A stretch of 64,000 bases of DNA from an uncultured Candidatus Saccharibacteria bacterium (GCA_964390845.1 CAYMIL010000001.1:178448-242447); one strand, 5' to 3'; positions 35,191 through 62,334 are shown, numbered from the stretch's first letter. Notes: generated from the sequence alone by a model not told the origin. Program-made: numbers and translations.

Positions 35191-35264
35191 GGCGTAGTGG
35201 CGAAGTTGGTTAACGCGGCGGTCTGCAAAACCGCTATGCGCCGGTTCAATTCCGGCCTACGCCT
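35191..35264 (+). tRNA. tRNA-Cys (GCA)
   Basis: Cloverleaf folded by hand: acceptor GGCGTAG/CTACGCC, anticodon loop cuGCAaa, T-loop TTCAATT. Confidence 0.85.
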
Positions 35265-35306
35265 CAAAGATTCCCTCAAGAAAAAAACGTGATACAGTAT
35301 CACTAA

Positions 35307-35391
35307 GCCCGGGTGATGAAATTGGTAGACATAGTCGACTTAAAATCGGCGGCCGAAAGGCATGCGGGTTCGATTCCCGCCCTGGGCACCA
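35307..35391 (+). tRNA. tRNA-Leu (TAA), type II, with encoded CCA
   Basis: Acceptor GCCCGGG/CCTGGGC, anticodon loop cuUAAaa, long variable arm and T-loop TTCGATT. Confidence 0.85.
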
Positions 35392-35404
35392 CAATACTCC
35401 ATAT

Positions 35405-35432
35405 TTGACATTTCTTTAAAATGTGCTAATAT
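35405..35432 (+). promoter_or_regulatory. Near-consensus sigma70 promoter for cassette D (TTGACA-N16-TAATAT)
   Basis: tTTGACAtttctttaaaatgtgcTAATAT. A GAAAGGGA Shine-Dalgarno lies 6 nt before the ATG at 35491. Confidence 0.55.
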
Positions 35433-35490
35433 GGGTTCTAGTCACATACCGAATAAACGACTGACGCTCCTTTCACGAAAGGGACTACCG

Positions 35491-35898
35491 ATGAGTATCT
35501 CACGTGTGCAAGAACTGTTCAGACGGCTTTTGAAGCGGTCTGAACCAGAGTGGCCGCAGCTCGTCGCAGAGAAGGACGAGATGAAACGCCAACTCGACGA
35601 GTACACACGGAAGTACCGCAACAGCCAACTTCCGTACCGCGATCGAGCGCACGCCGCAGAGGCATACGTGCGCGAAGCTCCGAAGCTCGTCCGCCACGCC
35701 GCTACTATGGCGACTGCAGGCGGACGCACCCAGAGTCTCGAGGACTACGATCCTCGCCTCGTCGCCATCATGACAGCTGAACTTGGCTACATCGCCAAGC
35801 ATTTCAAGCGGTACCCCGGGTGCTATGAGGGTGTCGTGGTGATCATCCGGTCGCCACACTTCCCCGAGCGTCTCCAGGGACAGGTCCTGTTCAACTGA
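35491..35898 (+). CDS. GC-rich cassette D: hypothetical soluble protein (136 aa) between tRNA-Leu and tRNA-Lys
   Basis: High GC and GC3 codons. The longer ORF in the track overlaps tRNA-Leu, so the start was set at the first ATG after the promoter. Confidence 0.55.
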   Translation: MSISRVQELFRRLLKRSEPEWPQLVAEKDEMKRQLDEYTRKYRNSQLPYRDRAHAAEAYVREAPKLVRHAATMATAGGRTQSLEDYDPRLVAIMTAELGYIAKHFKRYPGCYEGVVVIIRSPHFPERLQGQVLFN

Positions 35899-35925
35899 AT
35901 CCGTGATGAAGCTATGCATCACACA

Positions 35926-35960
35926 CCCCCGACCGCACCACGTGCGCGGTCGGGGTTTTC
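35926..35960 (+). terminator. Intrinsic terminator of cassette D
   Basis: CCCCCGACCGCaccacgtGCGCGGTCGGGG followed by tttt. Confidence 0.75.
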
Positions 35961-36003
35961 CATTACTATGTTTTATGTTATAAAGATATCTGTCGTTCCT
36001 TTT

Positions 36004-36076
36004 CCGCCTATAGCTCAGTTGGTAGAGCAACCGCCTCTTAAGCGGTGGGTCCCAGGTTCGAATCCTGGTGGGCGGA
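36004..36076 (+). tRNA. tRNA-Lys (CTT)
   Basis: Acceptor CCGCCTA/TGGGCGG, D-arm GCTCAGTTGGTAGAGC, anticodon loop cuCTTaa, T-loop TTCGAAT. Confidence 0.85.
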
Positions 36077-36103
36077 CTCGGTGTCGTGCGCACACATACA
36101 TAC

Positions 36104-36185
36104 GGGCGAGTGGCGTAATTGGTAGCCGCGCTAGTCTTAGGAACTAGTGGAGTAATCCATGGGAGTTCGAGTCTCCCCTCGCCCA
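36104..36185 (+). tRNA. tRNA-Leu (TAG), type II
   Basis: Acceptor GGGCGAG/CTCGCCC, anticodon loop cuTAGga, long variable arm and T-loop TTCGAGT. Confidence 0.85.
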
Positions 36186-36189
36186 CAAC

Positions 36190-36217
36190 TTGACTTTTCT
36201 GTTTTTTTGTGTATAAT
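36190..36217 (+). promoter_or_regulatory. Strong sigma70 promoter for cassette E1, immediately 3' of tRNA-Leu (TTGACT-N16-TATAAT)
   Basis: TTGACTtttctgtttttttgtgTATAAT. Confidence 0.6.
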
Positions 36218-36245
36218 ATTTTTTAGGCTCACAGCTGTGGCCGTA

Positions 36246-37562
36246 ATGATTACGGCTCGGTGTAGAGTCGTTCTTTGGCATCATCGCAACAAGAGAAAGG
36301 TAGCGTGTCTCGTGAAGAAGAAAATCAACTGGATGTTTTGGATCAACTTGTACCTCCTGAGCGGCTGCGTAGCGGTGCTCGGGTGGTACGCCAACCCTCT
36401 GCTGGGAGTGGTGATCATCGTCATTTCCCTCTTCCACCCCGCCATGTACTTGGCGCTGGGCTGGACGGTCCGCAAGATCGCTTCGTGGGAGAAGAAGAAG
36501 TTCTTCATCTTTCCCACTGAGGGACAGATCATTCCCATTGTGAGAGGTGTCTCCAGCGGAACCGACAAAGACCGTGGTGACGCAAGAAGTGACACCAGCA
36601 AAACTGGTGGCGCCCGTAGTGGCGTGTTTGACCACTTCGTGATCTCTATCCGGGGGCACGTCATGGTCGGCAACAAGCTGGTAAAGCTTCCAGACAACGA
36701 GGAAGCACCGCGTAGCTTTTGGAATCTGCACTTCGGTGTGGAATGGATTGGCTTGTGGCAGACGGTCCAGACGTACCACTTCAAGTGGAACACCCTGAAG
36801 TGGAACGCTGAAACCGAAGAGGCCGAGATTTTTCCTCGGGATGAAATTGTGTCTTCGCTGTTTTGGAGGGCGCAATACGCATTCCTGATTGTTGAGGTGG
36901 AGGACAAAAACAACCTCCGCCTCACTCTCAAGGTTCTCGTGAACCTGAGGACGGTCAATCCGTACCAGACGCTGTACGGAACATCTGGCAAGCCAGGCGA
37001 CTGGATTCAAGCGGTCGCCGCCGCGATTACCGCGGTCATCCGAGACTTCGTGGGCAAGGAAAGCTACGAGAGTCTGATCGGGATGCAGACCGAAGGCGAT
37101 AACTCGCCCTTCATCAGGGCAATCAAGACCCTCAACACGAAGTGCCTCAATGGCAACGATAGCCTCGAGGACTTGTACGGCCAGGTCATCGACAGCGCCA
37201 ACATGATCTCGGTCGAGCTTTCGGACGAGGACATGCGTGAGATCACGCAGGAGAAGTACCGGGCCGAGCAGAAGAAGCTCGCGGCAGAGCAGGACGCTGT
37301 ACGGACCATTACCCTCGGCACCGCTGAGGCAACGGTTCGACAGAAGAACCTCGAGGCAGAAGCCGCTGGCAAGAAGGCCATGCTTAAAGCCGAAGCTGCT
37401 GGCACGAAGGCTGTACTTGAGGCAACTGCGGCAGGCTACGAGAAGATCGGAACCGCTGCAGATGGCAAGGGTGCCAGCATGTTCGCTGCTTCGAAACTGA
37501 GTGAAACCAAGGGCACCCTTGTCTTGGACAAGGACACCATTGGTCTCAACCTGAACCAGTAA
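36246..37562 (+). CDS. GC-rich cassette E1: SPFH/band-7 (flotillin-like) membrane protein
   Basis: N-terminal TM region; SPFH core; C-terminal AEQKKLAAEQ...EAEAAGKKAMLKAEAAGTKAVLEATAAG flotillin-type EA repeats. The start is 36246, with an alternative ATG at 36333. The 5' part of the ORF in the track overlaps the tRNA. Confidence 0.7.
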   Translation: MITARCRVVLWHHRNKRKVACLVKKKINWMFWINLYLLSGCVAVLGWYANPLLGVVIIVISLFHPAMYLALGWTVRKIASWEKKKFFIFPTEGQIIPIVRGVSSGTDKDRGDARSDTSKTGGARSGVFDHFVISIRGHVMVGNKLVKLPDNEEAPRSFWNLHFGVEWIGLWQTVQTYHFKWNTLKWNAETEEAEIFPRDEIVSSLFWRAQYAFLIVEVEDKNNLRLTLKVLVNLRTVNPYQTLYGTSGKPGDWIQAVAAAITAVIRDFVGKESYESLIGMQTEGDNSPFIRAIKTLNTKCLNGNDSLEDLYGQVIDSANMISVELSDEDMREITQEKYRAEQKKLAAEQDAVRTITLGTAEATVRQKNLEAEAAGKKAMLKAEAAGTKAVLEATAAGYEKIGTAADGKGASMFAASKLSETKGTLVLDKDTIGLNLNQ

Positions 37563-37597
37563 CCCTTCGACCTCTCTCTGCGATGGTGCGCCCACAA

Positions 37598-37625
37598 GCC
37601 AGTATTCCACGGACGGAATACTGGC
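37598..37625 (+). terminator. Hairpin terminator of E1 abutting the E2 promoter
   Basis: GCCAGTATTCCacggacGGAATACTGGC followed by TTGACTTTT. Confidence 0.6.
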
Positions 37626-37654
37626 TTGACTTTTATATAAAAACGTGATAGTAT
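37626..37654 (+). promoter_or_regulatory. sigma70 promoter for E2 (TTGACT-N17-TAGTAT); an AAGGAG Shine-Dalgarno lies 6 nt before the GTG start
   Basis: TTGACTtttatataaaaacgtgaTAGTAT. AAGGAG at 37715-37720. Confidence 0.55.
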
Positions 37655-37726
37655 TATACAGGTAGGCTTGCTCTTTCACATATCACTCACACCCAATCCC
37701 CCTTCCGGGGGCACAAGGAGAACACT

Positions 37727-38683
37727 GTGTTCACGTCCATTCACAAGAACGTCTCTCGTCTGTACCGTAAGGCACTTGTCGCCAAGAAGCGCTTGAAGAA
37801 GCGCCGCATCAAGAACCACGGCGGACTCAAGAAGAAGTTCGGCGCGGCATTCGGGTGGATGCGCGACAAGGCATCCGCAACGACCAAGAAGGTCGCACCC
37901 GCGATGGCGTGGGCTCGCGAAAAGTCTGCGCGCCTGTACGCACGGGCAATCGCTGCGGGCAGTGGCACCAAGAAGCGCGTCCCCGCCATGTCGGCATGGA
38001 TGCGCAACAAGGGGTCGCGAGTCCTCGCATGGTCAGGCAAGCACAAGCAGTACGCTGTGCCTGCGCTCCTCGCGGGAGCGCTGGTCGGCATGATCATGTT
38101 CCTCCCCACCAAGAGCCTTCCGTCGTTTGGAGGCACAGGGGCGATCGTCTCGTTCCTGATCTGGACCGGTTGCATCATCGCAGGCCTTGGCATGATCACC
38201 CTCGTGGTGGTCTTGCAGATCAAGAAGAAGTTCCGGGTAGGAACGTTTCTCGCGCTGATCGCATTTTCTGGATCGGTAGCAATGATCGTGTGGCTCATTT
38301 GCCGCGGACCAGCAACGGCAACCGCAAACCGCAACCTCGTGGAGATTGCTTACGACAAAGAGATCGTGGGCACTCTTCACAAGGGAGAGTGGACTCCGGT
38401 ATTCGTCACCCCGACGAACTCTGGAAAAACCGTTGCGGACGTGGGTATGGAAAGCGAGTCGCCGGAAATGGTGATCCGCTACACCGCCCGCACCAAGCAA
38501 TGGGGCTCTGTTCAGAAGGAGCTTCCTCCCTTCCGATGCGAACGGGGTCGAGGGGTTTCCTGGCAGGAGTTCAGCTCCTACTACAGGAACCATTTCGGCC
38601 TCGATGTCATCGAGGTTTGTGCACTGCGAATTGGGTGCACGACCGATGAGCCCCTGACCTATGTGGTCAAGGCACACCGGTGA
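37727..38683 (+). CDS. GC-rich cassette E2: 3-TM membrane protein with N-terminal basic W-M-R-x-K amphipathic repeats and a C-terminal soluble domain; possible NfeD-like partner of the SPFH protein
   Basis: GTG start with a strong Shine-Dalgarno. Repeats AAFGWMRDKAS / AMAWAREKS / AMSAWMRNKGS. Three hydrophobic helices and a ~140-aa C-terminal domain. Confidence 0.6.
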   Translation: MFTSIHKNVSRLYRKALVAKKRLKKRRIKNHGGLKKKFGAAFGWMRDKASATTKKVAPAMAWAREKSARLYARAIAAGSGTKKRVPAMSAWMRNKGSRVLAWSGKHKQYAVPALLAGALVGMIMFLPTKSLPSFGGTGAIVSFLIWTGCIIAGLGMITLVVVLQIKKKFRVGTFLALIAFSGSVAMIVWLICRGPATATANRNLVEIAYDKEIVGTLHKGEWTPVFVTPTNSGKTVADVGMESESPEMVIRYTARTKQWGSVQKELPPFRCERGRGVSWQEFSSYYRNHFGLDVIEVCALRIGCTTDEPLTYVVKAHR

Positions 38684-38701: not shown

Positions 38702-38730
38702 GCGGCGTGGGACTTGTCCCACGCCGCTTT
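38702..38730 (+). terminator. Intrinsic terminator of E2
   Basis: GCGGCGTGGGActtgTCCCACGCCGC followed by tttcgttttc. Confidence 0.75.
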
Positions 38731-38754: not shown

Positions 38755-38785
38755 AAAAAACCCGGCAGACAGCCGGGCATTTTGT
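38755..38785 (-). terminator. Terminator at the 3' end of the small-protein array (minus strand)
   Basis: CCCGGCtgtctGCCGGG followed by ttttttg on the minus strand. Confidence 0.7.
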
Positions 38786-38794
38786 ATAAAAGCG

Positions 38795-39064
38795 TTAGAA
38801 AAAGCCTGATCCAGGAGGATTGGGGATGCCGAATGTTCTCAGAAGGACTCGAATGATGCCATAGACAGAAACCATGATAAACATTCCAACAATGCCCCAG
38901 AAAATACTACGCTTCCCGTCTTCCACATCGCCTCCATTCCCCGTGTCGCGGATAAACTTCACAATGCCGTAAAAGAATACTGTCAGCGCAATAGCAAATA
39001 GAAGAACAACAATCGGCTGAAGAATATACTGAACAACGTTATTTAACAGTCCATATATATTCAT
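38795..39064 (-). CDS. Array member P1: small two-TM protein (pilin-like core, no signal peptide)
   Basis: 89 aa with a hydrophobic helix, a charged loop (DTGNGGDVEDGKRS) and a second hydrophobic helix. Paralogous to P2-P4. Confidence 0.7.
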   Translation of the reverse strand: MNIYGLLNNVVQYILQPIVVLLFAIALTVFFYGIVKFIRDTGNGGDVEDGKRSIFWGIVGMFIMVSVYGIIRVLLRTFGIPNPPGSGFF

Positions 39065-39076
39065 AGAAAACGACTA

Positions 39077-39448
39077 CTAATTATTACCAGGAATTGGAAC
39101 ACTTGGAACAGTGATAGAACCATTATCTGAGCTACCACCAACACCAACACCGAGTGAATCACCGATAAATCGAACGAGTCCCCATACGCTTGAAGCTACG
39201 AATAGCGCAACGATTCCCCACACCATCATCTGTCGTCCTTCTTTTCGCGCGTCGCTATCTGTCGCATTCATCACAAACTTCAAAAGACCCCAGAAGAAGT
39301 ACACGAGAATGAGAGCGAAGATGATTGGAGTTACAAGTCCAATTATGTCTCCAATAGCCCTAATAAGACTCTTAATTTTTGTGAGCTCTGCAGCAAACGC
39401 GAGTGCCGGTGAGAGAAACAGCGCGCTTCCGATAATAATCTTTTTCAT
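39077..39448 (-). CDS. Array member P2: secreted small two-TM protein
   Basis: Signal peptide MKKIIIGSALFLSPALAFA; FFWGLLKF...MMVWGIVALFV...VWGLVRF motifs. Confidence 0.7.
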   Translation of the reverse strand: MKKIIIGSALFLSPALAFAAELTKIKSLIRAIGDIIGLVTPIIFALILVYFFWGLLKFVMNATDSDARKEGRQMMVWGIVALFVASSVWGLVRFIGDSLGVGVGGSSDNGSITVPSVPIPGNN

Positions 39449-39536
39449 ATACGTTTCTAACTTTTTAAATACTAATATGGTACCCAATAATAATACTACA
39501 CATACACCGCTTTAGCCCAGATGGCTGTGAATAACC

Positions 39537-39851
39537 CTAAAAACCTCCACTTGAAAGCGACTCGCCAGTTTTTATGTTGAGATTGTCTCCCACAAACTTA
39601 ACGATACCCCACACACTCATCATGACAAACAGCGCAATCACGCCCCACACCATAAACTTCCGACCCTCTTCACGCTTCCCGCTTTCTGCTGAGTGCAACA
39701 TAAACTGCGCAATACCCCACAAAAACGCAACAAATGTGATCCCAGCAACAATAGGAATGAGTGCTGTGATAACACTGTAAGCACCCCCAAGCAGGTCGTT
39801 GATACCTCCATTAGACGCTTCTGCAATATACGGGAGAAAAAGATGCTTCAT
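39537..39851 (-). CDS. Array member P3: small two-TM protein
   Basis: FLWGIAQF...KREEGRKFMVWGVIALFVMMSVWGIVKF, paralogous to P2. Confidence 0.7.
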   Translation of the reverse strand: MKHLFLPYIAEASNGGINDLLGGAYSVITALIPIVAGITFVAFLWGIAQFMLHSAESGKREEGRKFMVWGVIALFVMMSVWGIVKFVGDNLNIKTGESLSSGGF

Positions 39852-39854
39852 ATA

Positions 39855-40283
39855 TTAAAAGGTTGGCAATCGAGGCACAGATACAGAGCTCGTGCCCACA
39901 AGATCGCTTGCGAGAAAATTGACAATACCCCAGATACTCACCATCACAAACAGCCCAATAATCCCCCAAAACATAATGTTGCGTGCCGCCTCGTGCGAAC
40001 CACCATCACCACTAGCACTGTACACAAAGCGTGCAAGTCCCCAGAAGAAAACAAGGAGCGCTGCGGCAGCGAGAAGCGGTACAATTTGTCGAAGAATACC
40101 AACAAAAATACAAATCACTTCACGAAAATTTGTTGGAGGCACAGAGCACGTATTTTGATATGTATAAAACTGACCAACTTCAGACTGGGAGAAAAAGCCG
40201 GCTGCCGACGCGCTGTGCATAGGCACAATCATCTGCGCACACGACAGTATACAGAATACGATAACTAGAATCTTTTTTGACAT
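39855..40283 (-). CDS. Array member P4: secreted small two-TM protein with an N-terminal Cys pair
   Basis: Signal peptide; FFWGLARF...AARNIMFWGIIGLFVMVSIWGIVNF. Confidence 0.7.
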   Translation of the reverse strand: MSKKILVIVFCILSCAQMIVPMHSASAAGFFSQSEVGQFYTYQNTCSVPPTNFREVICIFVGILRQIVPLLAAAALLVFFWGLARFVYSASGDGGSHEAARNIMFWGIIGLFVMVSIWGIVNFLASDLVGTSSVSVPRLPTF

Positions 40284-40750
40284 AAATCTGGGATGCTGTT
40301 ATTGGACACTTGGCAGATTGTTGCGCGTACCGCTTCCACAATCACCACAGCGCCAAACAAAATCGCCGCGCCAATCATCACACCATAGAAACCCTTCTTT
40401 GCCTCTTCAAGCTTTTTCACATCACCCTGAGCCGTCACAAACTTGTATCCTGTGTAGATAACGTAGAAAACAACCACTATCGACCCGATAGGCATCACAA
40501 TCACCTTAAGCACATATTCAATAAAACCAATAAGACTGTTTGGTCCATTTACACCCTCTCCAAAGGGGTTTGGAAAATATGACAATTGGCTAGAGCCAGA
40601 ACTTCCCCCGCTCGAGCCTCCTGGATTTTGTGTAATAACCCCAGAAGATTGACCCGATGACGGGTTTTGAGTTTCTACCTGAGCAGACACAGACACTACA
40701 GACGCACACCAGAGAGTCACACACATGAGCACAACAAGTATGTATTTCAT
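40265..40750 (-). CDS. Array member P5: secreted protein with a Gly/Ser-rich linker and two TM helices
   Basis: Signal peptide MKYILVVLMCVTLWCASVVSVSA, a GGSSGGSSGSS linker, then two hydrophobic helices separated by QGDVKKLEEAKKG. Confidence 0.65.
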   Translation of the reverse strand: MKYILVVLMCVTLWCASVVSVSAQVETQNPSSGQSSGVITQNPGGSSGGSSGSSQLSYFPNPFGEGVNGPNSLIGFIEYVLKVIVMPIGSIVVVFYVIYTGYKFVTAQGDVKKLEEAKKGFYGVMIGAAILFGAVVIVEAVRATICQVSNNSIPDLCQKRF

Positions 40751-40767
40751 ACAATGATTATATAATC

Positions 40768-41181
40768 TTATTTCAGCAATGAGAAGGATTGGTCAAGCAA
40801 ACTCACGATTGTATACACAATAAGCCACGCGGAGAGCACCAAGAGAAAACCCTTAAGCACCAGAAAAAAGATGGACCGCGCTTTTTCTACCTGTTTAGGG
40901 TTATCAACAGCAGTAATATACAAAAAACCGGCATAGGTAAAAGATATTGCCGCAAGCGGAATCGCAAGGGCAATGAGATAGTTGATCACATTTTTACCAA
41001 GCTTAAGGAGATCGTTGAACGTACACTCGTCTGTAATACCTCCCGTCGACGGGTCGACTGTGTTGCCACACGGAATCAGGCCATTTCCTCGGCTTTGAGC
41101 ATGCGCCATCGATGGAAGTGCTACAGATACCGCGCACACAAGCATCACACATGCAAGACATATTCCTGAAAGTAGTTTCAT
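40768..41181 (-). CDS. Array member P6: secreted two-TM protein with an N-terminal Cys pair
   Basis: Signal peptide MKLLSGICLACVMLVCAVSVALPSMAHA, a CGN...DEC pair, and two hydrophobic helices around DNPKQVEKARS. Confidence 0.65.
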   Translation of the reverse strand: MKLLSGICLACVMLVCAVSVALPSMAHAQSRGNGLIPCGNTVDPSTGGITDECTFNDLLKLGKNVINYLIALAIPLAAISFTYAGFLYITAVDNPKQVEKARSIFFLVLKGFLLVLSAWLIVYTIVSLLDQSFSLLK

Positions 41182-41188
41182 AGAGTAG

Positions 41189-42490
41189 CTATTGTGTATT
41201 ATTAAAAAGCACCTCAAGCTCGTCATGTGCACGATCAACGGCTTCGGCAGGCGTGCGACGACCACCAGTCACAGACTCAATCATTTCTTTAAAGACAGCG
41301 TTTGTCTGATCTCTGTCTGGTTGAAGCCATGCACGAGACTGAATTGCTGCGTCGTAGAACACAGACATATACGCTTCTGTCGGACGCTGTGTAAGCAAAT
41401 CTCGACGAACAGGAGGTAGCTGTATCGTGTTGCTGAGCTCCTGAAGTGCCTGACTGTTGACGAGCATGAGTGCCGCGCTAATCGCCGTGTCTTTGTGCTG
41501 AGATGCTTTTGGAATCGCCCACGCCATCATCCGGCCAAATGTCACTTTTTGTTTTGCTTCTGGAGACTGAGGCAACATTGCCACGTTGAAGTTGAGATTT
41601 GGGTTTTTGCTTTGAATATCTGCCACCTCAGACGCGTACCCCATATAGAGCGCCAGCTGTCCGGCGATAAAGTAATTTTTGGAGAGGGGCAACGATCTGT
41701 TCCATGAATAAAATGGTTTTAGTGGATTACTAAACTCTGTGTAATAAGAAAGTGCGACAGAGGCAGGCACGAGCGGCGCGCCGTTGTTGTCGTCGATTGT
41801 TGATTCAACCTGTGAGCCGGACCGGCGAGAAAGCACGCCCCCCGCCTGCATTGCGAGCGCGCCGAGAACATCCATCGCATTGGAAACATTGGTATATTCA
41901 CCAAGCGACACTACGCTCTGGCGCACGTTTCCACCCTCATCTTTTGTTGTTAGTTTCGGCGCTAGGTCATAGAGCTCACTCCAATATTTAGGAGGCAAGC
42001 TCAAGCCTGCATTTGAAAATATGGTTCTGTTCCAAAACATTACGAGCGGGTCGACAACAAACGGAATACCCATCACACCATCTGGCGCGAGATATAGCTC
42101 ACCCTCTTCAATAAACACGTCTTTGAAATCACGTTCTGAAAGCGACGCGTATGGGATAGGATACACTTTGCTCTGATACTTTACGATAAGGTCCTGTGGC
42201 AAAAAGAATAGATCTGGTGAACGGCCAGATGCGATTTCATTTACAAGGTCCGCCTCAAGCTGTTGTACTGTTTTAGGTACATACGTAATCTGTATGAGTT
42301 TGTTTTGATAGAGCGGTGAGTTTTCTACAAGCGTTGAAAACACCTCACTCGTAAAAGGACCCCACACTGTGAGCGTTACGGGGTTTTGCGTGTTTCCAAA
42401 ACGTCCAACAGCAAAAATCATGACGCCAATCAGAATACATGCACCAAAGATAACCATGAGCACCAACTGAAATTTACTAATTTCCTTCAT
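41189..42490 (-). CDS. Extracellular solute-binding protein (ABC family-1 SBP), orphan (no permease or ATPase nearby)
   Basis: 433 aa with an N-terminal TM/signal anchor and the SBP_bac_1-type fold pattern. Confidence 0.75.
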   Translation of the reverse strand: MKEISKFQLVLMVIFGACILIGVMIFAVGRFGNTQNPVTLTVWGPFTSEVFSTLVENSPLYQNKLIQITYVPKTVQQLEADLVNEIASGRSPDLFFLPQDLIVKYQSKVYPIPYASLSERDFKDVFIEEGELYLAPDGVMGIPFVVDPLVMFWNRTIFSNAGLSLPPKYWSELYDLAPKLTTKDEGGNVRQSVVSLGEYTNVSNAMDVLGALAMQAGGVLSRRSGSQVESTIDDNNGAPLVPASVALSYYTEFSNPLKPFYSWNRSLPLSKNYFIAGQLALYMGYASEVADIQSKNPNLNFNVAMLPQSPEAKQKVTFGRMMAWAIPKASQHKDTAISAALMLVNSQALQELSNTIQLPPVRRDLLTQRPTEAYMSVFYDAAIQSRAWLQPDRDQTNAVFKEMIESVTGGRRTPAEAVDRAHDELEVLFNNTQ

Positions 42491-42491
42491 G

Positions 42492-43016
42492 TTACTTTTT
42501 CTTAAAGATTATTCCGTAATGATGCTTGCCTGCGTCAAATGTTTTCTCGACGGCGAAACCCGCTTCAAACAACGCCTTGCATGCCGATGCGGTAACAATT
42601 GCTTTCGGCTCAGGGCCAAGGCCTCCAAAAGAATCCGTCCAGTCGACAACATAAACCTTTCCGCCAGGCTTAAGGATTCGAGACACTTCCTCACGAAACG
42701 TATCGCGATTGCCTATCTGAAAAAGAAGATTGGCAACAATCACACCATCGACGCATGCATCACGCAGTCGGGTACCTCCCACCTTTTCCGCATCGCCCCA
42801 AATAATTTCAATATTTCGCAGATGCTCTTTTTGCGCATCATTCGCAAGACGAGTAAGTGGCTCTTTTTGAATATCAATCGCGTATATCTTGCCATGTGGA
42901 CCAACAGCGCGCGCGGCAAGTTTTGCATAAAAACCAGGACCAGCGCCAATGTCGGCAAGTGTCATGCCCTGTATCAATGCGAAGTGCTCTATATTTTTTT
43001 CCGGACTAGAGAACAT
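42492..43016 (-). CDS. Class I SAM-dependent methyltransferase
   Basis: Motif I LADIGAGPGFYA and a post-I acidic residue; 174 aa. Confidence 0.8.
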   Translation of the reverse strand: MFSSPEKNIEHFALIQGMTLADIGAGPGFYAKLAARAVGPHGKIYAIDIQKEPLTRLANDAQKEHLRNIEIIWGDAEKVGGTRLRDACVDGVIVANLLFQIGNRDTFREEVSRILKPGGKVYVVDWTDSFGGLGPEPKAIVTASACKALFEAGFAVEKTFDAGKHHYGIIFKKK

Positions 43017-49725: not shown

Positions 49726-50331
49726 ATGACTGAGCAAGAATCTCCACAGATACAACAACCTGCTCAACAGCAAAAAAAGTCCGGCGGTTTTTTTTGGGAA
49801 ATCGTGAAGTTTACGATTTTCGCCGCAATTATTGTCTTCCCTATACGTTTTTTTATTGCTCAACCATTCGTCGTTAGTGGCGCATCAATGGACCCCACAT
49901 TTAAAAACGGTGAATACCTGATTGTCGATCAAATTTCATATAAAATTGAAGCGCCACATCGCGAGGACGTTATCGTGTTCAGGTATCCAAACGACAAAAC
50001 AAAGTTTTTCATCAAGCGCATTATTGGATTGCCAGGAGAAACTGTTGAAATCCGCGGGGGCACGGTACACATTAAAAACCCTGCGCATCCCGACGGCGAA
50101 GTGCTGGTAGAAAACTACATCGCTCCAGAACACCAGAAGCAAGACACCGTCACCATGACCCTCAAAGACAACGAATATTTTGTTATGGGCGACAACCGAA
50201 GTGGAAGCTCTGATTCGCGCATGTGGGGTCCGGTGGGTACCGACCTCATCATGGGTCGACCATTTGTACGACTCCTTCCGTTAAGCCGCATCGACCTCTT
50301 CCCTGGCACCGACAGAAATGATCAACAATAA
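49726..50331 (+). CDS. lepB: Signal peptidase I
   Basis: SGASMDPT (catalytic Ser box), KRIIGLPGE and GDNRSGSSDSR boxes. Confidence 0.92.
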   Translation: MTEQESPQIQQPAQQQKKSGGFFWEIVKFTIFAAIIVFPIRFFIAQPFVVSGASMDPTFKNGEYLIVDQISYKIEAPHREDVIVFRYPNDKTKFFIKRIIGLPGETVEIRGGTVHIKNPAHPDGEVLVENYIAPEHQKQDTVTMTLKDNEYFVMGDNRSGSSDSRMWGPVGTDLIMGRPFVRLLPLSRIDLFPGTDRNDQQ

Positions 50332-54770: not shown

Positions 54771-55709
54771 ATGTACGATCTCATCATAATTGGTGGCGGA
54801 CCTGCTGGCGTCGCCGCGGGCGTCTATGCCGCACGCAAACGCCTCACAACCGCGTTTATCACAGCAGACTTCAATAGCCAGAGCGCGGTGTCCGAGAATA
54901 TCCAAAATTGGATTGGTACTATTTCTCTTTCAGGGCAGACCTTAGCAGACAATCTGAGAAAACACCTCCTCGCATACGCAGACGACGTTGTAACACTCTT
55001 TGAGGGACAGTGGGCACAACGTATAGAAAAAACGGCGGACGGTGAAGGGTTTACCGTAACAACAGATAAGGGCACGTTTACAGCACGTGCAGTACTCATC
55101 GCCACAGGAAGCACCCGACGCAAGCTCACCGTTCCTGGTGCAGACACCTTTGAACACAAAGGTCTCACCTACTGCGCATCCTGCGACGGGCCACTGTTTG
55201 CTGGCCAAGATGTTGCTGTTATTGGCGGGGGTAATGCCGCATTTGAGACAGCTGCCCAACTCCTCGCATACGCAAAAACAGTTACCCTCCTTAACCGCAG
55301 TGACAACCTTAGGGCCGACCCCGTTACCGTAGAGCGAGTACTCGCCCATCCACAGATGCGCGTTATCAAAAACGCAGTCCCTACAGAGGTTCGCGGAGAA
55401 AAGTTTGTAACAGGACTCACTTATGAAGATACGACAACACACGCCCAAGAAACTCTTCCGGTAACCGGCATTTTCGTCGAAATCGGCCTTATTCCTTCAA
55501 CATCTTTTGCATCATCCATTGTATCCCTCGATGAACACGGACACATCCCTGTTGACCCTCGCACACAACGTACGCCAGTCGAGGGTATCTGGGCTGCCGG
55601 AGATTGCACCGACGGGCTCTATCATCAAAACAACATCGCCGCGGGCGATGCTGTAAAGGCTCTCGAAGATATTTATATGTTTATAGTCCGGAAATCACCG
55701 ACGCGGTAA
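54771..55709 (+). CDS. trxB: Thioredoxin reductase
   Basis: IIGGGPAG FAD site, CASC redox-active motif (CASCDG) and GGGNAA NADPH site. Confidence 0.92.
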   Translation: MYDLIIIGGGPAGVAAGVYAARKRLTTAFITADFNSQSAVSENIQNWIGTISLSGQTLADNLRKHLLAYADDVVTLFEGQWAQRIEKTADGEGFTVTTDKGTFTARAVLIATGSTRRKLTVPGADTFEHKGLTYCASCDGPLFAGQDVAVIGGGNAAFETAAQLLAYAKTVTLLNRSDNLRADPVTVERVLAHPQMRVIKNAVPTEVRGEKFVTGLTYEDTTTHAQETLPVTGIFVEIGLIPSTSFASSIVSLDEHGHIPVDPRTQRTPVEGIWAAGDCTDGLYHQNNIAAGDAVKALEDIYMFIVRKSPTR

Positions 55710-56682
55710 GATCTGTCGGCAACTCTGAGCGCGTGTGTGTTATATACACGTTTGCGTACATAAGCCCCGCAATTAGCACCACCATTGCAACAGCACCAGC
55801 GATAATGCGCGGGTGCTGTATTTGTATTTTTACAAACACAGTGAGCGTGAGGGCAAGCAACACAAAGAGAAGGAATGCCCCGAGAACGTATTCTGTCGTA
55901 GCGCGTGGCGTGGACTGTACGCGACGGAGAATTGATGTTTGATCGGGCTGTGATGTCTCACTTCCAAGAACACGTACGGCATCTTGTGATGTAGGCACTT
56001 CAGGCGCTGGCGCTTCTGCTACAGAAGGTATCTGCTGTACAGGAGAAGTAGGCGTACCAGCTGGGGCTGGTGTGGGTGTGGAAGCAGGTGTTTGAAGTGC
56101 CACGCTACGCGACACGCGCTTTGGCGCACCAAAGAACTGCGCAACAAAGATTGCCTGACGGCCCTTGTACACACCCTGAGCAACAGCAATACCGACCTCT
56201 GTATAATGTTCGTTTACAATATTTGCCCGATGTAGCGGCGAATTCATCCATGCACGATCGACGTCCTGTGAATCCACAAAGTTGACCGCGAGATTTTCAC
56301 CTGCATATGAGTAGTTGTATCCAACCTGATGTAGCCAATACCACGGCTCATGCCCCTCAGGGCTTGTGTGCGCAAAGTAACCCTTTGCAGCCATATCATT
56401 TGCCTTCAGCTGAGCCGCCTGTTCAAGGAGTGCGTTGTGGGACAATGGCGCCAAGCTGTTATCCTCACGATTTTCATTGGTAAGTGATACGAGCACACCC
56501 GGCAATACCGACGCGAGATTACGAAAAACAGCTGTATTAAAAAAGAAGGCATTGAGTACGAAAAAGCCCTCGATGCACAGTACGAGCGCGGCCATAACGA
56601 GAAGCGACTTCATTCGAAGCGCGTGCGGCTTATAATCGTTGTCCGGACGAGGGATGAGATATCGTGTAATCGCCTTTCTCAT
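55681..56682 (-). CDS. CAP/SCP (PR-1-like) domain protein, membrane-anchored with a P/T-rich linker
   Basis: GYFAHTSPEGHEPWYW...GENLAVNF...HRANIVNEHYTEVGIAVAQG are CAP-domain blocks. N-terminal TM helix and a C-terminal TM helix after a PAP-rich linker. Confidence 0.75.
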   Translation of the reverse strand: MRKAITRYLIPRPDNDYKPHALRMKSLLVMAALVLCIEGFFVLNAFFFNTAVFRNLASVLPGVLVSLTNENREDNSLAPLSHNALLEQAAQLKANDMAAKGYFAHTSPEGHEPWYWLHQVGYNYSYAGENLAVNFVDSQDVDRAWMNSPLHRANIVNEHYTEVGIAVAQGVYKGRQAIFVAQFFGAPKRVSRSVALQTPASTPTPAPAGTPTSPVQQIPSVAEAPAPEVPTSQDAVRVLGSETSQPDQTSILRRVQSTPRATTEYVLGAFLLFVLLALTLTVFVKIQIQHPRIIAGAVAMVVLIAGLMYANVYITHTRSELPTDLTASVISGL

Positions 56683-56723
56683 AATGCCGAAATTATATCA
56701 CATTTTATTGAAATATCAACAGC

Positions 56724-56796
56724 GACACAAACTGTGGGCGATAGAGGACTCGAACCTCTGGCATCAACAACGTCAATGTTGCGCTCTACCAACTGA
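56724..56796 (-). tRNA. tRNA-Val (GAC)
   Basis: Reverse complement folds with acceptor GGGCGAT/ATCGCCC, D-arm GCTCAGTTGGTAGAGC, anticodon loop uuGACgu and T-loop TTCGAGT. Confidence 0.85.
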
Positions 56797-56822
56797 GCTA
56801 ATCGCCCATAAAGGACATTTTA

Positions 56823-59540
56823 TCAGAACTCCGGTGTGCTGACAAAGAGTGCACAGCGCGCCTTGTGCTTCCCCGCAATCTTCTGCAAGCCATCCTCAAG
56901 GACATTTTCTGATCCACCCTGCCATGCACGAACAGCAGCAATATCATCTGCTCCATACACACCATCTACAGCAAGACTCGCGCCTTCATAGGTATTGAGG
57001 TACTTCTCGAGTAACTTCACCTGAACGGTGTTGTTTGCCGCACCAACCTTAATCTCTTGTGTTGGGTACAACAGAGGAAGCGCACATGACAAGATCTGAG
57101 TTTCGATTTCTGCCTGTGCACACGCCGCTTTGTGAGTCTGCTTAATCTTCTGAAGGCTTGTCATAAAAACGTAGCCGGTACCCTTTGTAATACCCCACGG
57201 CTTGAGTACTTCGTCTGCATATTTCTCCTGCCATGCGACAACAGCATTAAAATCATTCTGAGAATAGATGCCGTCGACTGGGAGCTGTGCACCCTCATAG
57301 GTGTTGAGAAAACGCTCAAGAAGTTTTACATCTTCTGGATTGTTTACTGCGCCGAGCTTGATTGGGCGCGTAAGGTACGGCTCAACTTCACATGAGAGCG
57401 TAGACGCTCCAAGAACTTCTCCTGTAGACGCAATACGGCCTCCACTACTTCCTCCACCATGGTGTCCTCCTCCGTTTCCACCACCATTACCTCCACTGTT
57501 ATTTGCTGAAGCAAATGCCACAGTGAGCGTTTTGTCAGCAACAACATCATACACATTGTCTGAAAGAGCATCGTTTACAGCGACAGTAATTGTTGCGGTG
57601 TCATTGTCTCCCGCTGTCCCTGTGCCAGTCACAAGAACTTTCTGAGGAAGATTCCAGTTGGACGGAGTAAATGTAAGTGTACTTGGCACAACAGTCGCGC
57701 GTGACACATCTGATGATGACACATCTATAACCACATCAGTCGCTGGCTGTGTGTTGAGCACCACGGTGAAAGAATCGTTGCCGTTGCCTGTGATATCAAG
57801 TGATGTTTTTGAAACCGTAATACCCGCGCCAGTCGCAATCGGTGATGCGTAATGCACATATACTGCGCCACGATTTGTACCCATCGTATCGTCGTAGAAT
57901 GCGCCAACAGCCATATCATTCATGCCGTCTCCATTGAGATCGCCCATGTTTGCAATCGACTCACCGTAAAAGTCATTGAAGTTGATTGCTGGACCGTTTG
58001 GAGAGTTTTCATCGAGAAGCTCTGTAGACTTGATCGAACCGTCCGCGTTCATGAAGTGCACAAATACCTCACCCTTGTTGTCACCCGCTGTCGATTCATC
58101 TGCAGTTGAGAAGAAACTTTCCGCACCAACAGCAATGTCATTTACACCATTCCCATCGAGGTCGCCCATATTTTCAACAGAAGTACCGTAGTAGTCATTG
58201 TCGGCAAGTGTTGGGCCATTTGCAGTGTTATCATCAATTTTTACTGTTGAATTGATGCCGTTGGCACTGTTCATAAAGTGAATGTATAGTGCACCACGAT
58301 GGACACCTACCGTATTGTCGTAATTTGCGCTTACAGCGATATCTGAAACGCCGTCATGGTTGATATCGCCGATATCATCAATTGCTGTGCCGTAATAATC
58401 CATGTCTACCAACACCGCACCATGGGGTGTTGTTCCATCAAACACCTTCGTTGATTTCACTGAACCATCGTGGTTCATAAAATGCATAAACCATGCACCG
58501 CGGTCTACACCACCGCTGTCTTTGTAGTGGGAACCCACCGCAAGGTCCTGCACACCGTCACCATCTCGATCACCAATGTCAGCAATAGCCACTCCATATC
58601 GGTCATTGTTTGCAAGAACAGGACCATTTGCAGTGCTGTCGTCGATTTTTACCGTCGACTTAACAGAACCATTTGTATTCAAAAAGAGAATGTAGACAGC
58701 ACCTCGGTTGAGACCCACAGAGTCATCACCGTATGCACCCACAGCAATATCTGTGACACCGTCGTTGTTGAGGTCGCCGATGTTTTCAAGACTCACACCA
58801 AACTGATCGTTTTCAGCGAGTGTTGGGCCGTTTGCAGTGCTGTCGTCGATTTTTACCGTCGACTTAACTGTATTGTCGGCGTTTCGGAAATGGATATATA
58901 CCGCGCCAGTGTCAGTGCCATTTGTATCATTGCGATGCGCACCCACAGCAATATCTGTGACGCCGTCGTTGTTGAGGTCGCCAATGTTTTCAACGCTAAC
59001 GCCGTATCGATCCTCGTTTGCAAGTGTTGGGCCGTTTGCAGTGCTGTCGTCAATTTTAAATGTTGAAAGGAGGCTAAATGGCGTATCTGCTCCGGACAAC
59101 AACAACTCAAACAAGTTTTCCTGTTTTGCAGGAATTTGCTGTGCAGATTTTGACGAACGACGTGAAGAAACAAAACGAGTTGGGTTTGTTGAAACAGGTG
59201 TAAGGGCCTCAGTCACAACAACCGCGCCTGTGTCGTCTTGTGTGTAAGTCTCAGATGCAGAGGTGTCCGCTACCGGAGTTTCTGTTGCTGGAGTTTCTGT
59301 TGCTGGAGTTGTTGTTTGCACAACCTCCTCAGAAGAAATCTCGGGTGTTGGCTCAGATACTTCTTGAGAAGCGGGCTCTGAAGCAACCTCTTCAGAAATT
59401 CCCTCGGAAACCGACGCCACTTCAGCACTTGAAGAAAATACAAACATCGATGGCGGAAAGCCCATTATCAACACAGAAACAGCGAATACTGAGGCAAAAA
59501 ACTTGATCTGGTGAGAGAGATATGTGGCAAGAAGTCGCAT
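56823..59540 (-). CDS. Large secreted FG-GAP/VCBS-repeat protein with Ig-like region, Gly-rich linker and two C-terminal peptidoglycan-binding-like domains
   Basis: 905 aa. Signal peptide; PATETPATETP linker; ~7 repeats of DDSTANGPTLA..D.FG.S...IGDLNNDGVTDIAVGA; NNSGGNGGGNGGGHHGGGSSGG; two domains of PG_binding_1 type (LLEKYLNTYEGASLAVDGVYG...AVRAWQ). Confidence 0.75.
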   Translation of the reverse strand: MRLLATYLSHQIKFFASVFAVSVLIMGFPPSMFVFSSSAEVASVSEGISEEVASEPASQEVSEPTPEISSEEVVQTTTPATETPATETPVADTSASETYTQDDTGAVVVTEALTPVSTNPTRFVSSRRSSKSAQQIPAKQENLFELLLSGADTPFSLLSTFKIDDSTANGPTLANEDRYGVSVENIGDLNNDGVTDIAVGAHRNDTNGTDTGAVYIHFRNADNTVKSTVKIDDSTANGPTLAENDQFGVSLENIGDLNNDGVTDIAVGAYGDDSVGLNRGAVYILFLNTNGSVKSTVKIDDSTANGPVLANNDRYGVAIADIGDRDGDGVQDLAVGSHYKDSGGVDRGAWFMHFMNHDGSVKSTKVFDGTTPHGAVLVDMDYYGTAIDDIGDINHDGVSDIAVSANYDNTVGVHRGALYIHFMNSANGINSTVKIDDNTANGPTLADNDYYGTSVENMGDLDGNGVNDIAVGAESFFSTADESTAGDNKGEVFVHFMNADGSIKSTELLDENSPNGPAINFNDFYGESIANMGDLNGDGMNDMAVGAFYDDTMGTNRGAVYVHYASPIATGAGITVSKTSLDITGNGNDSFTVVLNTQPATDVVIDVSSSDVSRATVVPSTLTFTPSNWNLPQKVLVTGTGTAGDNDTATITVAVNDALSDNVYDVVADKTLTVAFASANNSGGNGGGNGGGHHGGGSSGGRIASTGEVLGASTLSCEVEPYLTRPIKLGAVNNPEDVKLLERFLNTYEGAQLPVDGIYSQNDFNAVVAWQEKYADEVLKPWGITKGTGYVFMTSLQKIKQTHKAACAQAEIETQILSCALPLLYPTQEIKVGAANNTVQVKLLEKYLNTYEGASLAVDGVYGADDIAAVRAWQGGSENVLEDGLQKIAGKHKARCALFVSTPEF

Positions 59541-61541: not shown

Positions 61542-62225
61542 TTAGCCGTGCATTGAGCAGAAGAGATTGTTGAGCTTCTGCTTTGTGTATACATACACAT
61601 ATCCTGTCGGAGCAACATCAGTGCCCCACGGAGCGAGGATTTCTGAAGCGTATCGCCCCTGAAATGCCTTTACAGCTGAAAGTGTTGCATCATCAAACGT
61701 ACCAGACAAAGGTGCTGTGAAGCCAAGCTCTGTGAGGAAAAACTGGAGTCGGACCATTTCCATACGATCATTATTGAGACCCTGCTTGAGGTATGTGCTG
61801 ATCAATGAGCAACCCTCCCCCGCAGAAGTCGAAGCACCGAGTACCTCTCCCTGAATTGGTGAAGAGAACAATGAACCACCAACAGAAGAACCTCGAGAAG
61901 AGCCAGACGTTGTGCCACCACCATTACCATCAGTGTCTTCACCGCCAGTATCGCCTTCATCATCTGTTCTGTTTCCTGCATCACCATGATGTCCTCGGCC
62001 TGTTGAGGTAAGAACATGTGTGTTGTCGATAACATCAACTTTATCGTGAGAAAGTGTTGGCTCCTGAGTATCTGATGTTTCTGTACTCACCATCGGATCA
62101 CCCACGCCGACAATTACAATATCACTTTCCACACCCGCCTCATCAGCAAATACTGCGCCCGGCACAAATCCAAGAGACGCAACCATGGCAACGAGAGCAA
62201 CAATCTTTTTATGCATACGTGTCAT
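61542..62225 (-). CDS. Secreted protein with a Gly-rich linker and a C-terminal peptidoglycan-binding-like domain
   Basis: Signal peptide (MHKKIVALVAMVASLGFVPGAVFA); GGEDTDGNGGGTTSG linker; C-terminal LKQGLNNDRMEMVRLQFFLTELGF...AVKAFQ of PG_binding_1 type. Confidence 0.7.
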   Translation of the reverse strand: MTRMHKKIVALVAMVASLGFVPGAVFADEAGVESDIVIVGVGDPMVSTETSDTQEPTLSHDKVDVIDNTHVLTSTGRGHHGDAGNRTDDEGDTGGEDTDGNGGGTTSGSSRGSSVGGSLFSSPIQGEVLGASTSAGEGCSLISTYLKQGLNNDRMEMVRLQFFLTELGFTAPLSGTFDDATLSAVKAFQGRYASEILAPWGTDVAPTGYVYVYTKQKLNNLFCSMHG

Positions 62226-62334
62226 ATTCATTAACTTATAACCGCTGTTAGCTTGGCTTATTTCTACTTGAATACTGACCATTTGTCAACATCTCGAAAA
62301 AAACGAGTATTTCAACATGTTACAATAACTATGC

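Follow-up and report, generated by a model that had tools for sequence, protein, structure and literature searches.

A solute-binding protein gene leads a conserved operon of ordered pilin-like genes in Patescibacteria

A 64,000-nucleotide stretch of DNA deposited under an uncultured Candidatus Saccharibacteria bacterium (GCA_964390845.1, CAYMIL010000001.1:178448-242447; hereafter the window, always meaning the whole stretch) carries an operon in which a gene for a membrane-anchored solute-binding protein (SBP) is followed by six small genes, named P6 to P1 in the direction of reading. We found that the SBP gene is the conserved leader gene of this pilin operon, and that the six genes behind it are almost certainly a PF18895 pilin-like array of the kind known from Patescibacteria. 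The SBP-led array and a fixed order of pilin classes, present in at least 52 species, seem to be new, whereas the array kind itself has already been published; about the pilin family itself the locus adds nothing new, and its value lies in these two features. Overall, we consider it fairly probable that the SBP and six pilin-like proteins of the VirB2/TrbC superfamily contribute to a heteromeric structure assembled by a type IV secretion system (T4SS).

Patescibacteria account for much of the diversity of bacteria, and they live in attachment to other cells. In the one genetically tractable species, a T4SS and its pilin series are essential for this way of life. Epibiotic growth of Southlakia epibionticum ML1 requires a series of pilins within the T4SS cluster (Wang et al. 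2023, PMC10633639), an unusual arrangement, given that T4SSs of the Gram-positive type are normally without pilins (PMC10633639). Quinonero-Coronel et al. 2025 (PMC12102498) screened 3,035 Patescibacteria genomes, most of them VirB4 carriers, for the families PF04956 and PF18895. VirB2-like pilins were detected in 1,948 assemblies that contain VirB4, and in 1,135 of these they lay close to virB4; the survey also described 441 VirB2 arrays of 2-11 genes with a mean identity of 25% and a maximum of 54%; antigenic or host-range variation was suggested as the function of the arrays, and the monoderm MPF-FATA class was noted as having no VirB2 homologues (PMC12102498). The Southlakia results and those of the VirB2-array survey are restated in a 2025 review (PMC12857230), and in cultured Paceibacterales the T4SS pilins rank with the most strongly expressed genes of unknown function (mBio 2024, PMC10936435). 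In Paceibacteria, virB4 usually lies near dnaA/dnaN.

Results

Six proteins of one pilin family

All six array proteins matched a single Pfam family, PF18895 (T4SS_pilin; gathering cut-off 26.6 bits), with P1, P2, P3 and P4 scoring above the cut-off at 29.8, 35.0, 40.5 and 30.7 bits, respectively. The best match in the window to PF04956 (TrbC/VirB2; cut-off 27.9 bits) was that of P5, at 25.8 bits (E 1.2e-5) and under the cut-off. Among the positional orthologues of P5, drawn from 52 other species, 53/53 matched PF18895 and 41/53 matched TrbC at E<1e-3 (best E 6.6e-9); the corresponding counts for P6 were 52/53 and 15/53. Furthermore, the profile of the class that includes P2 and P3, marked by an FFWG motif (class D), was homologous to that of the P5 class (class B), with an hhalign probability of 99.6% (E 2e-24), and a profile built from the paralogues picked out exactly these six open reading frames (ORFs) within the window. 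Because all six match one Pfam family and the profile returns only those six, the array is not a chance grouping. On these profile comparisons, membership of the six proteins in PF18895 is secure, and membership in the classical TrbC/VirB2 family plausible but borderline. A VirB2/TrbC-pilin-like identity had been proposed in an earlier, sequence-only reading of this DNA, and the PF18895 matches of all six proteins, together with the TrbC matches of P5 and its orthologues, back that proposal.

Beyond the window, the pilin profile retrieved 52,453 cluster representatives from a library of 1.84 billion proteins, 9,356 of them at E<=1e-10; named relatives included "pilin [Patescibacteria group bacterium]" and proteins of Candidatus Paceibacterota. 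A profile was required for this wider retrieval, a word-seeded search with P3 alone returning only 6 proteins. Matches to NCBIfam NF045849 (Mbov_0395; cut-off 40 bits) were all below the cut-off, at 24.8 bits for P2, 21.9 for P5 and 18.3 for P6; a monoderm origin of patescibacterial pilins may deserve a look in this regard. Type IV pilins (PilA/ComGC) were considered and rejected: neither the six proteins nor the N-terminus of the SBP carried the class III signal (G↓FTLxE), and no array protein had a Pfam match to the pilin N-methylation or type II secretion system (T2SS) families.

Leaders and helices of the array proteins

Each of P1-P6 contained two transmembrane-length hydrophobic segments in Kyte-Doolittle windows. 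The P2 structure predicted by AlphaFold2 from 119 aligned homologues (mean predicted local distance difference test score, pLDDT, 82.4; core >90) was a helix-loop-helix hairpin, with helices at residues 13-60 and 65-98 and a disordered C-terminal tail rich in Gly, Ser and Pro. Hydropathy for all six proteins and the P2 hairpin thus agree with the two-transmembrane topology first proposed for them, and the core design of PF18895 (~70 residues, two hydrophobic helices and a short polar loop) was found in all six by hydropathy and in the P2 model. Hydrophobic N-terminal leaders with AxA-type ends were recognized in P2, P4, P5 and P6 (AFA↓A, ASA↓A, VSA↓Q and AHA↓Q, respectively). The sequence-only reading had assigned signal peptides to all members except P1; the lack of a leader in P1 was upheld, and the leader of P3, weak and 16 residues long, also proved doubtful, so that two members are without a clear signal peptide. 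Similarly, the FFWG and MVWGI motifs ascribed to the whole array hold for P1-P4, with P5 and P6 belonging to more divergent classes. P5 combines a signal peptide with a Ser/Gly-rich extracellular segment, and in P6 a signal peptide is joined by a two-helix hairpin and an extracellular segment that carries a Cys pair (C38/C53); C38 and C53 were at least 90% conserved among 53 orthologues.

A fixed order of pilin classes

When 30 pilins of five genomes were placed in a neighbour-joining tree, they grouped by their position in the array and not by genome; P4, for instance, fell together with the third-position genes of the other genomes. Hidden Markov models (HMMs) of the resulting classes were then run on 52 complete arrays. 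Class A was first in the array in 46/52, class B second in 45/52, class C third in 25/52 and class E, always short and leaderless, last in 50/52. Class D alone varied in copy number (2-4 copies), giving an overall order A-B-(C)-D(n)-E; the commonest architectures were ABCDDDE (15 arrays), ABDDDE (11), ABCDDE (8) and ABDDE (6). The array of the window is ABCDDE, with P6 in class A, P5 in B, P4 in C, P3 and P2 in D, and P1 in E.

An all-against-all comparison of P1-P6 and a count of array genes across species, both of which had been suggested as checks, gave a mean core identity of 24.6% (maximum 39%) among the paralogues and 4-8 pilin genes per array between species. With six tandem genes and this mean identity, compared with the published 25%, the array resembles the VirB2 arrays already published. 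By sequence comparison, the classes are positional orthologues across species, for which specialised subunits fit better than simple variation cassettes. The suggestion that the array encodes variable surface filaments is accordingly only partly apt: the variability lies in class D, whereas order and class are conserved between species.

In addition to separate genes, we observed "poly-pilins", single polypeptides in which 2-16 T4SS_pilin modules are joined by linkers and lack internal signal peptides; examples are P0127 (333 aa), P0137 (606 aa), P0007 (231 aa) and P0190 (1775 aa), and at locus L028 a 2170-aa ORF with a pilin module lies inside an array. As a Rosetta-stone hint, such fusions suggest that the modules may pack side by side in their functional state.

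The solute-binding protein as operon leader

The protein encoded ahead of the array matched Pfam SBP_bac_1 at 76.4 bits (cut-off 26) and SBP_bac_8 at 65.7 bits. It is of the carbohydrate type: the closest solved structure was 4r9f MBP1 (E 1.4e-25), and proteins that bind maltose and trehalose came next. A one-genome-per-species scan with an SBP alignment found orthologues in at least 579 species-level Patescibacteria genomes. From these searches we retained 80 SBP loci, all of which (80/80) carried Patescibacteria-type titles (Paceibacteria, Parcubacteria, Zambryski-, Taylor-, Kaiser- and Campbell-bacteria, and generic labels), and we ran the pilin HMM on their ORFs; 53 loci were evaluable, with at least 4 kb of sequence downstream of the SBP. 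In 52/53, pilin genes directly followed the SBP gene on the same strand, usually 4-8 and most commonly 6 or 7, with the first typically 3-50 nucleotides (nt) after the SBP stop; the single apparent exception had five pilin ORFs and was an artefact of ORF overlap. The SBP had been described as an orphan, which is apt in that no ATP-binding cassette (ABC) permease or ATPase gene adjoined it in the window or in seven annotated contexts, but its place as conserved operon leader in many species does not agree with that label. An SBP-pilin link in Patescibacteria was mentioned neither in the main texts of the published studies nor in full-text literature searches.

Moreover, the membrane anchor of the SBP (42400-42490, minus strand) was conserved among 79 orthologues (F7 99%, Q8 84%, F15 91%, G22 96% and F26 96%) that are otherwise only ~40-58% identical to the SBP of the window. 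The spacing of these residues places them on one predicted helical face, a hint of a specific partner within the membrane.

Transcription unit and chromosomal setting

Downstream of the SBP gene, six consecutive minus-strand ORFs (38795-41181) extend to a strong terminator (Table 1), as had been described from the sequence alone, down to the P4/P5 overlap. The SBP stop lies 7 nt ahead of P6, and the spacings from P6 to P1 are 17, -19 (the P5/P4 overlap), 3, 88 and 12 nt. The stem of the terminator after P1 has seven pairs, six of them G-C, plus TTTTTTGTTT; its folding energy is -23.2 kcal/mol (z = -5.47 against shuffles). The terminator is thus real (z = -5.5), but it does not face the tRNA island directly, as had been thought; it faces a convergent two-gene unit (36159-38683) closed by an opposing plus-strand terminator of its own at 38702-38727.

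Upstream, a methyltransferase gene on the same strand ends 1 nt ahead of the SBP gene, and in 21/28 related loci a co-directional methyltransferase gene lies ~0.5 kb upstream of the SBP start. A weaker hairpin followed by a T-run next to gyrA is a possible upstream boundary, and therefore the transcription unit may start at the methyltransferase. The top sigma-70-like match in the region (TTCTCA-17-TATAAT, 10/12; 40757-40785, minus strand) lies just upstream of P5 and is a possible internal promoter; the number of sigma-70-like sites in the region was not above the shuffled expectation.

The operon is chromosomal: the window contains rpoB/rpoC, dnaG, gyrA, dnaE, clpB, infB, ftsA/ftsZ and tRNA genes. 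Assignment of its host to the Patescibacteria (Paceibacteria/Parcubacteria-type) is supported by the titles of the 80 related loci and by the names of homologues. Six other genomes shared a common layout of Lactamase_B_3, gyrA, (methyltransferase), SBP_bac_1 and 4-7 pilin genes, beyond which came convergent genes of unknown function, often Band_7-like, and then rbfA-infB; their GyrA proteins were 70-73% and their SBPs 37-46% identical to those of the window. The gyrA gene was upstream in 27/28 fully flanked loci, and the position between gyrA and infB was fixed in many species. One operon-bearing genome is complete (OZ246398.1, 742,714 bp). Three public contigs (L001-L003) are from the same organism as the window, because their DNA is 100% identical to it; only the gene callers differ.

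Table 1. Coordinates of the operon, its boundaries and a gene relevant to leader processing, counted from the first letter of the window (aa, amino acids; SAM, S-adenosylmethionine).
Feature	Position	Strand	Length	Remarks
Hairpin + T-run 3' of gyrA	43053-43040	minus		terminator-like; consensus scan only
Class I SAM-methyltransferase	42492-43016	minus	174 aa	Pfam Methyltransf_31/11/25
SBP, membrane-anchored	41189-42490	minus	433 aa	SBP_bac_1 type
P6 (class A)	40768-41181	minus	137 aa	from MKLLSG start; maximal ORF to 41265 = 165 aa
P5 (class B)	40265-40750	minus	161 aa	19-nt overlap with P4
P4 (class C)	39855-40283	minus	142 aa	signal peptide, FFWG-type core
P3 (class D)	39537-39851	minus	104 aa	copy-number-variable middle class; short weak leader
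P2 (class D)	39077-39448	minus	123 aa	from MKKIII; maximal ORF to 39487 = 136 aa
P1 (class E)	38795-39064	minus	89 aa	leaderless
Intrinsic terminator closing the operon	38778-38760	minus		GC-rich stem + T-run
Signal peptidase I gene	49726-50331			

Discussion

We propose the following working model for the SBP-led operon. The pilin-like proteins would be inserted into the cytoplasmic membrane via Sec or YidC, and signal peptidase I, encoded in the window, would remove their leaders. VirB2 and TraA have both termini outside and a charged loop inside, and the array proteins would end in the same orientation. This membrane pool would then be extracted and polymerised by a VirB4-powered T4SS encoded elsewhere in the genome, and the product would be a heteromeric surface filament or a conduit for host-cell contact or exchange. 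Its bulk subunit would come from the duplicated class D and its specialised ones from classes A, B, C and E, with A, B and E as minor, tip or base components; we propose a heteromeric structure with specialised classes because of the ordered classes and the fused modules. The co-transcribed SBP might work with this structure, such as by recognising glycans or capturing nutrients, which is the least supported step and a speculative one. By analogy with the known pilins and with the genetics of Saccharibacteria, assembly of these proteins by a T4SS into an extracellular filament appears to have a slightly better than even chance of being correct.

Several of our results weigh against this model. 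P5 and P6 scored just under the PF18895 cut-off, at 23.0 and 25.3-25.4 bits, respectively. When compared with an alignment of 25 Agrobacterium-type VirB2 proteins, class B aligned in register with an hhalign probability of 17% (E 0.0015), and class D gave nothing past the signal peptide; the Agrobacterium T-pilin query was confirmed by a 100% database match and 97% matches annotated as VirB2. A PDB sequence search with the pilin profile retrieved no solved pilin and only chance matches to unrelated membrane proteins, and when the P2 model was compared with the PDB by Foldseek, nothing reached E<=0.001 and no solved pilin was retrieved. Histidine-kinase DHp domains, chemoreceptors and similar generic helical hairpins headed the Foldseek matches, and the search is uninformative for P2 because a helical hairpin is too simple to discriminate. 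Family scans of the ORFs of the window detected no VirB4, VirB6, VirD4 or secretin, in agreement with the absence of VirB4 and VirD4 noticed earlier, and seven annotated contexts, six of which are from other genomes, likewise had no T4SS gene closer than 10 kb to the array. A T4SS engine is therefore linked to the array by the family name and the literature only, the part played by the SBP in the operon is purely our inference, and the cited literature shows no image of such a pilus in Paceibacteria.

Comparison with known systems places the array closest to the published VirB2 arrays of Patescibacteria, with which it shares the families PF18895/PF04956, divergent tandem paralogues (six here and six in S. 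epibionticum) at ~25% identity, and a host of the same phylum of monoderm ultrasmall bacteria. Unlike those arrays, it lies outside a T4SS cluster, at the tail of an SBP-led operon at a fixed place between gyrA and infB, and it has the class order A-B-(C)-D(n)-E; the published main texts mention none of these features. The classical pilins VirB2, TrbC and TraA (Agrobacterium T-pilin, RP4 TrbC and F TraA) are likewise small proteins with a leader, two hydrophobic helices and a short charged loop, and the TrbC model matches P5 as well as many P5 orthologues; however, leader cleavage and the outward placement of both termini are properties of those pilins, whereas here four of six proteins have leaders and the topology is a predicted one. 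The similarity to them is also marginal (the 17% hhalign probability above), the host is monoderm, six differentiated paralogues take the place of a single major pilin, and the array is not adjoined by virB genes. The Mbov_0395 family (NF045849) of mycoplasma integrative and conjugative elements is similarly two-helix and pilin-like and belongs to a monoderm T4SS of a class related to Patescibacteria VirB4, but it is a single mobile-element gene, in contrast to the chromosomal array described here, and the matches to it were under 40 bits. As analogies only, ordered and differentiated paralogues build one filament in the minor-pilin operons (GspG-H-I-J-K and FimU-PilVWX), and a sugar-binding protein is tied to a pilin-like assembly system in the archaeal "bindosome"; unlike type IV pili, type II secretion and the bindosome, the array belongs to an unrelated superfamily, has no class III prepilin signal and is not adjoined by PilB/PilC.

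The conserved class order bears on the proposal of a diversification cassette whose paralogues, as interchangeable versions of a single major pilin, vary the surface for host range or for evasion of recognition by host or phage, as the authors of PMC12102498 suggested by analogy with Bartonella and Anaplasma. Low identity among the paralogues, a gene number that differs between species, and the two- to fourfold duplication of class D with lineage-specific near-duplicates, such as genes 5 and 6 of locus L004, would all be expected of such a cassette. However, A, B and E each occur as a single copy and hold their positions, at the frequencies given above, among species that are ~70% identical in GyrA. 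It follows that the paralogues are older than the species and that each is conserved in its own right, a pattern that points towards distinct roles; class D alone behaves as a variable set. We accordingly regard a cassette as unlikely. A T4SS-independent device for uptake or sensing of host sugars, in which the six two-helix proteins (12 helices) form a membrane complex with the anchored SBP, would account for the SBP gene being invariably in the operon, typically at short distance from the first pilin gene, for the lack of an ABC permease or ATPase nearby in any annotated context, for the absence of T4SS genes nearby and for the conserved anchor face (F7, F15, G22 and F26, 91-99%), which suggests an intramembrane partner; fused multi-module proteins are equally compatible with a membrane oligomer. 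Such a transporter is, however, without precedent, and its energising component is absent. Furthermore, the array family is homologous to the TrbC/VirB2 pilins, the homologous Saccharibacteria array sits within an essential T4SS cluster, and the extracellular tails and the Cys-pair extension look surface-exposed, all of which makes this membrane complex rather doubtful in our view.

Small size and two hydrophobic helices are all that the array proteins have in common with holin-, bacteriocin- or immunity-like membrane proteins unrelated to secretion, apart from sub-cutoff Pfam matches at chance level (SieB, E 0.0049; FixQ, E 0.014). The sequence-only reading had kept this option, which found no supporting Pfam or NCBIfam match; all six proteins instead consistently match the pilin family, the neighbours are housekeeping genes with no lysin, bacteriocin or phage genes among them, and the locus occupies a fixed chromosomal position between gyrA and infB in many species, so that we consider a holin-type function very improbable. 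Our preferred reading remains the heteromeric, T4SS-assembled structure. A further proposal concerns a distinct surface organelle occurring across Paceibacteria, in which a heteromeric VirB2-type filament, with a class D shaft and specialised A, B, C and E subunits, would be coupled through the anchor face of the SBP to a sugar-binding protein; it would serve the recognition or harvest of host glycans, separately from DNA or effector transfer and possibly independently of the canonical T4SS cluster. This proposal is speculative, and we think it improbable.

Collectively, the comparative result provides a testable model of differentiated subunits of one structure together with an associated binding protein, and it offers a well-defined operon as a target in Paceibacteria that can now be co-cultured.

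Additional features of the window

The region convergent with the operon, comprising 36144-37679 (both strands) and 37727-38683 (plus strand), has a G+C content of 55%, compared with ~47% elsewhere. Its first part contains two overlapping, near-full-length ORFs on opposite strands, of 467 aa (plus) and 511 aa (minus), between which public gene callers chose differently on identical DNA. The 467-aa plus-strand product weakly matches SPFH/Band_7 (E 4.7e-4), and in relatives the corresponding convergent position is taken by Band_7-like genes; because of these two observations, the plus-strand ORF is probably the real one. The second part encodes a 318-aa membrane protein (37727-38683) with no family match and no orthologues detected at E<1e-5.

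Four tRNA genes (Cys-GCA, Leu-TAA, Lys-CTT and Leu-TAG) lie at 35191-36186, and a 228-aa minus-strand ORF at 35500-36186 that overlaps two of them is almost certainly spurious. On the other side of the operon, the minus strand of 55681-59540 encodes two adjoining proteins that are probably at the surface: one of 905 aa, in which FG-GAP repeats and a peptidoglycan-binding domain are combined with a hydrophobic segment at the N-terminus, and one of 333 aa with a CAP (cysteine-rich secretory protein) domain. A further PG_binding_1 protein is encoded at 61542-62282, and the 905-aa, CAP-domain and PG_binding_1 proteins are candidates for functions in host contact.

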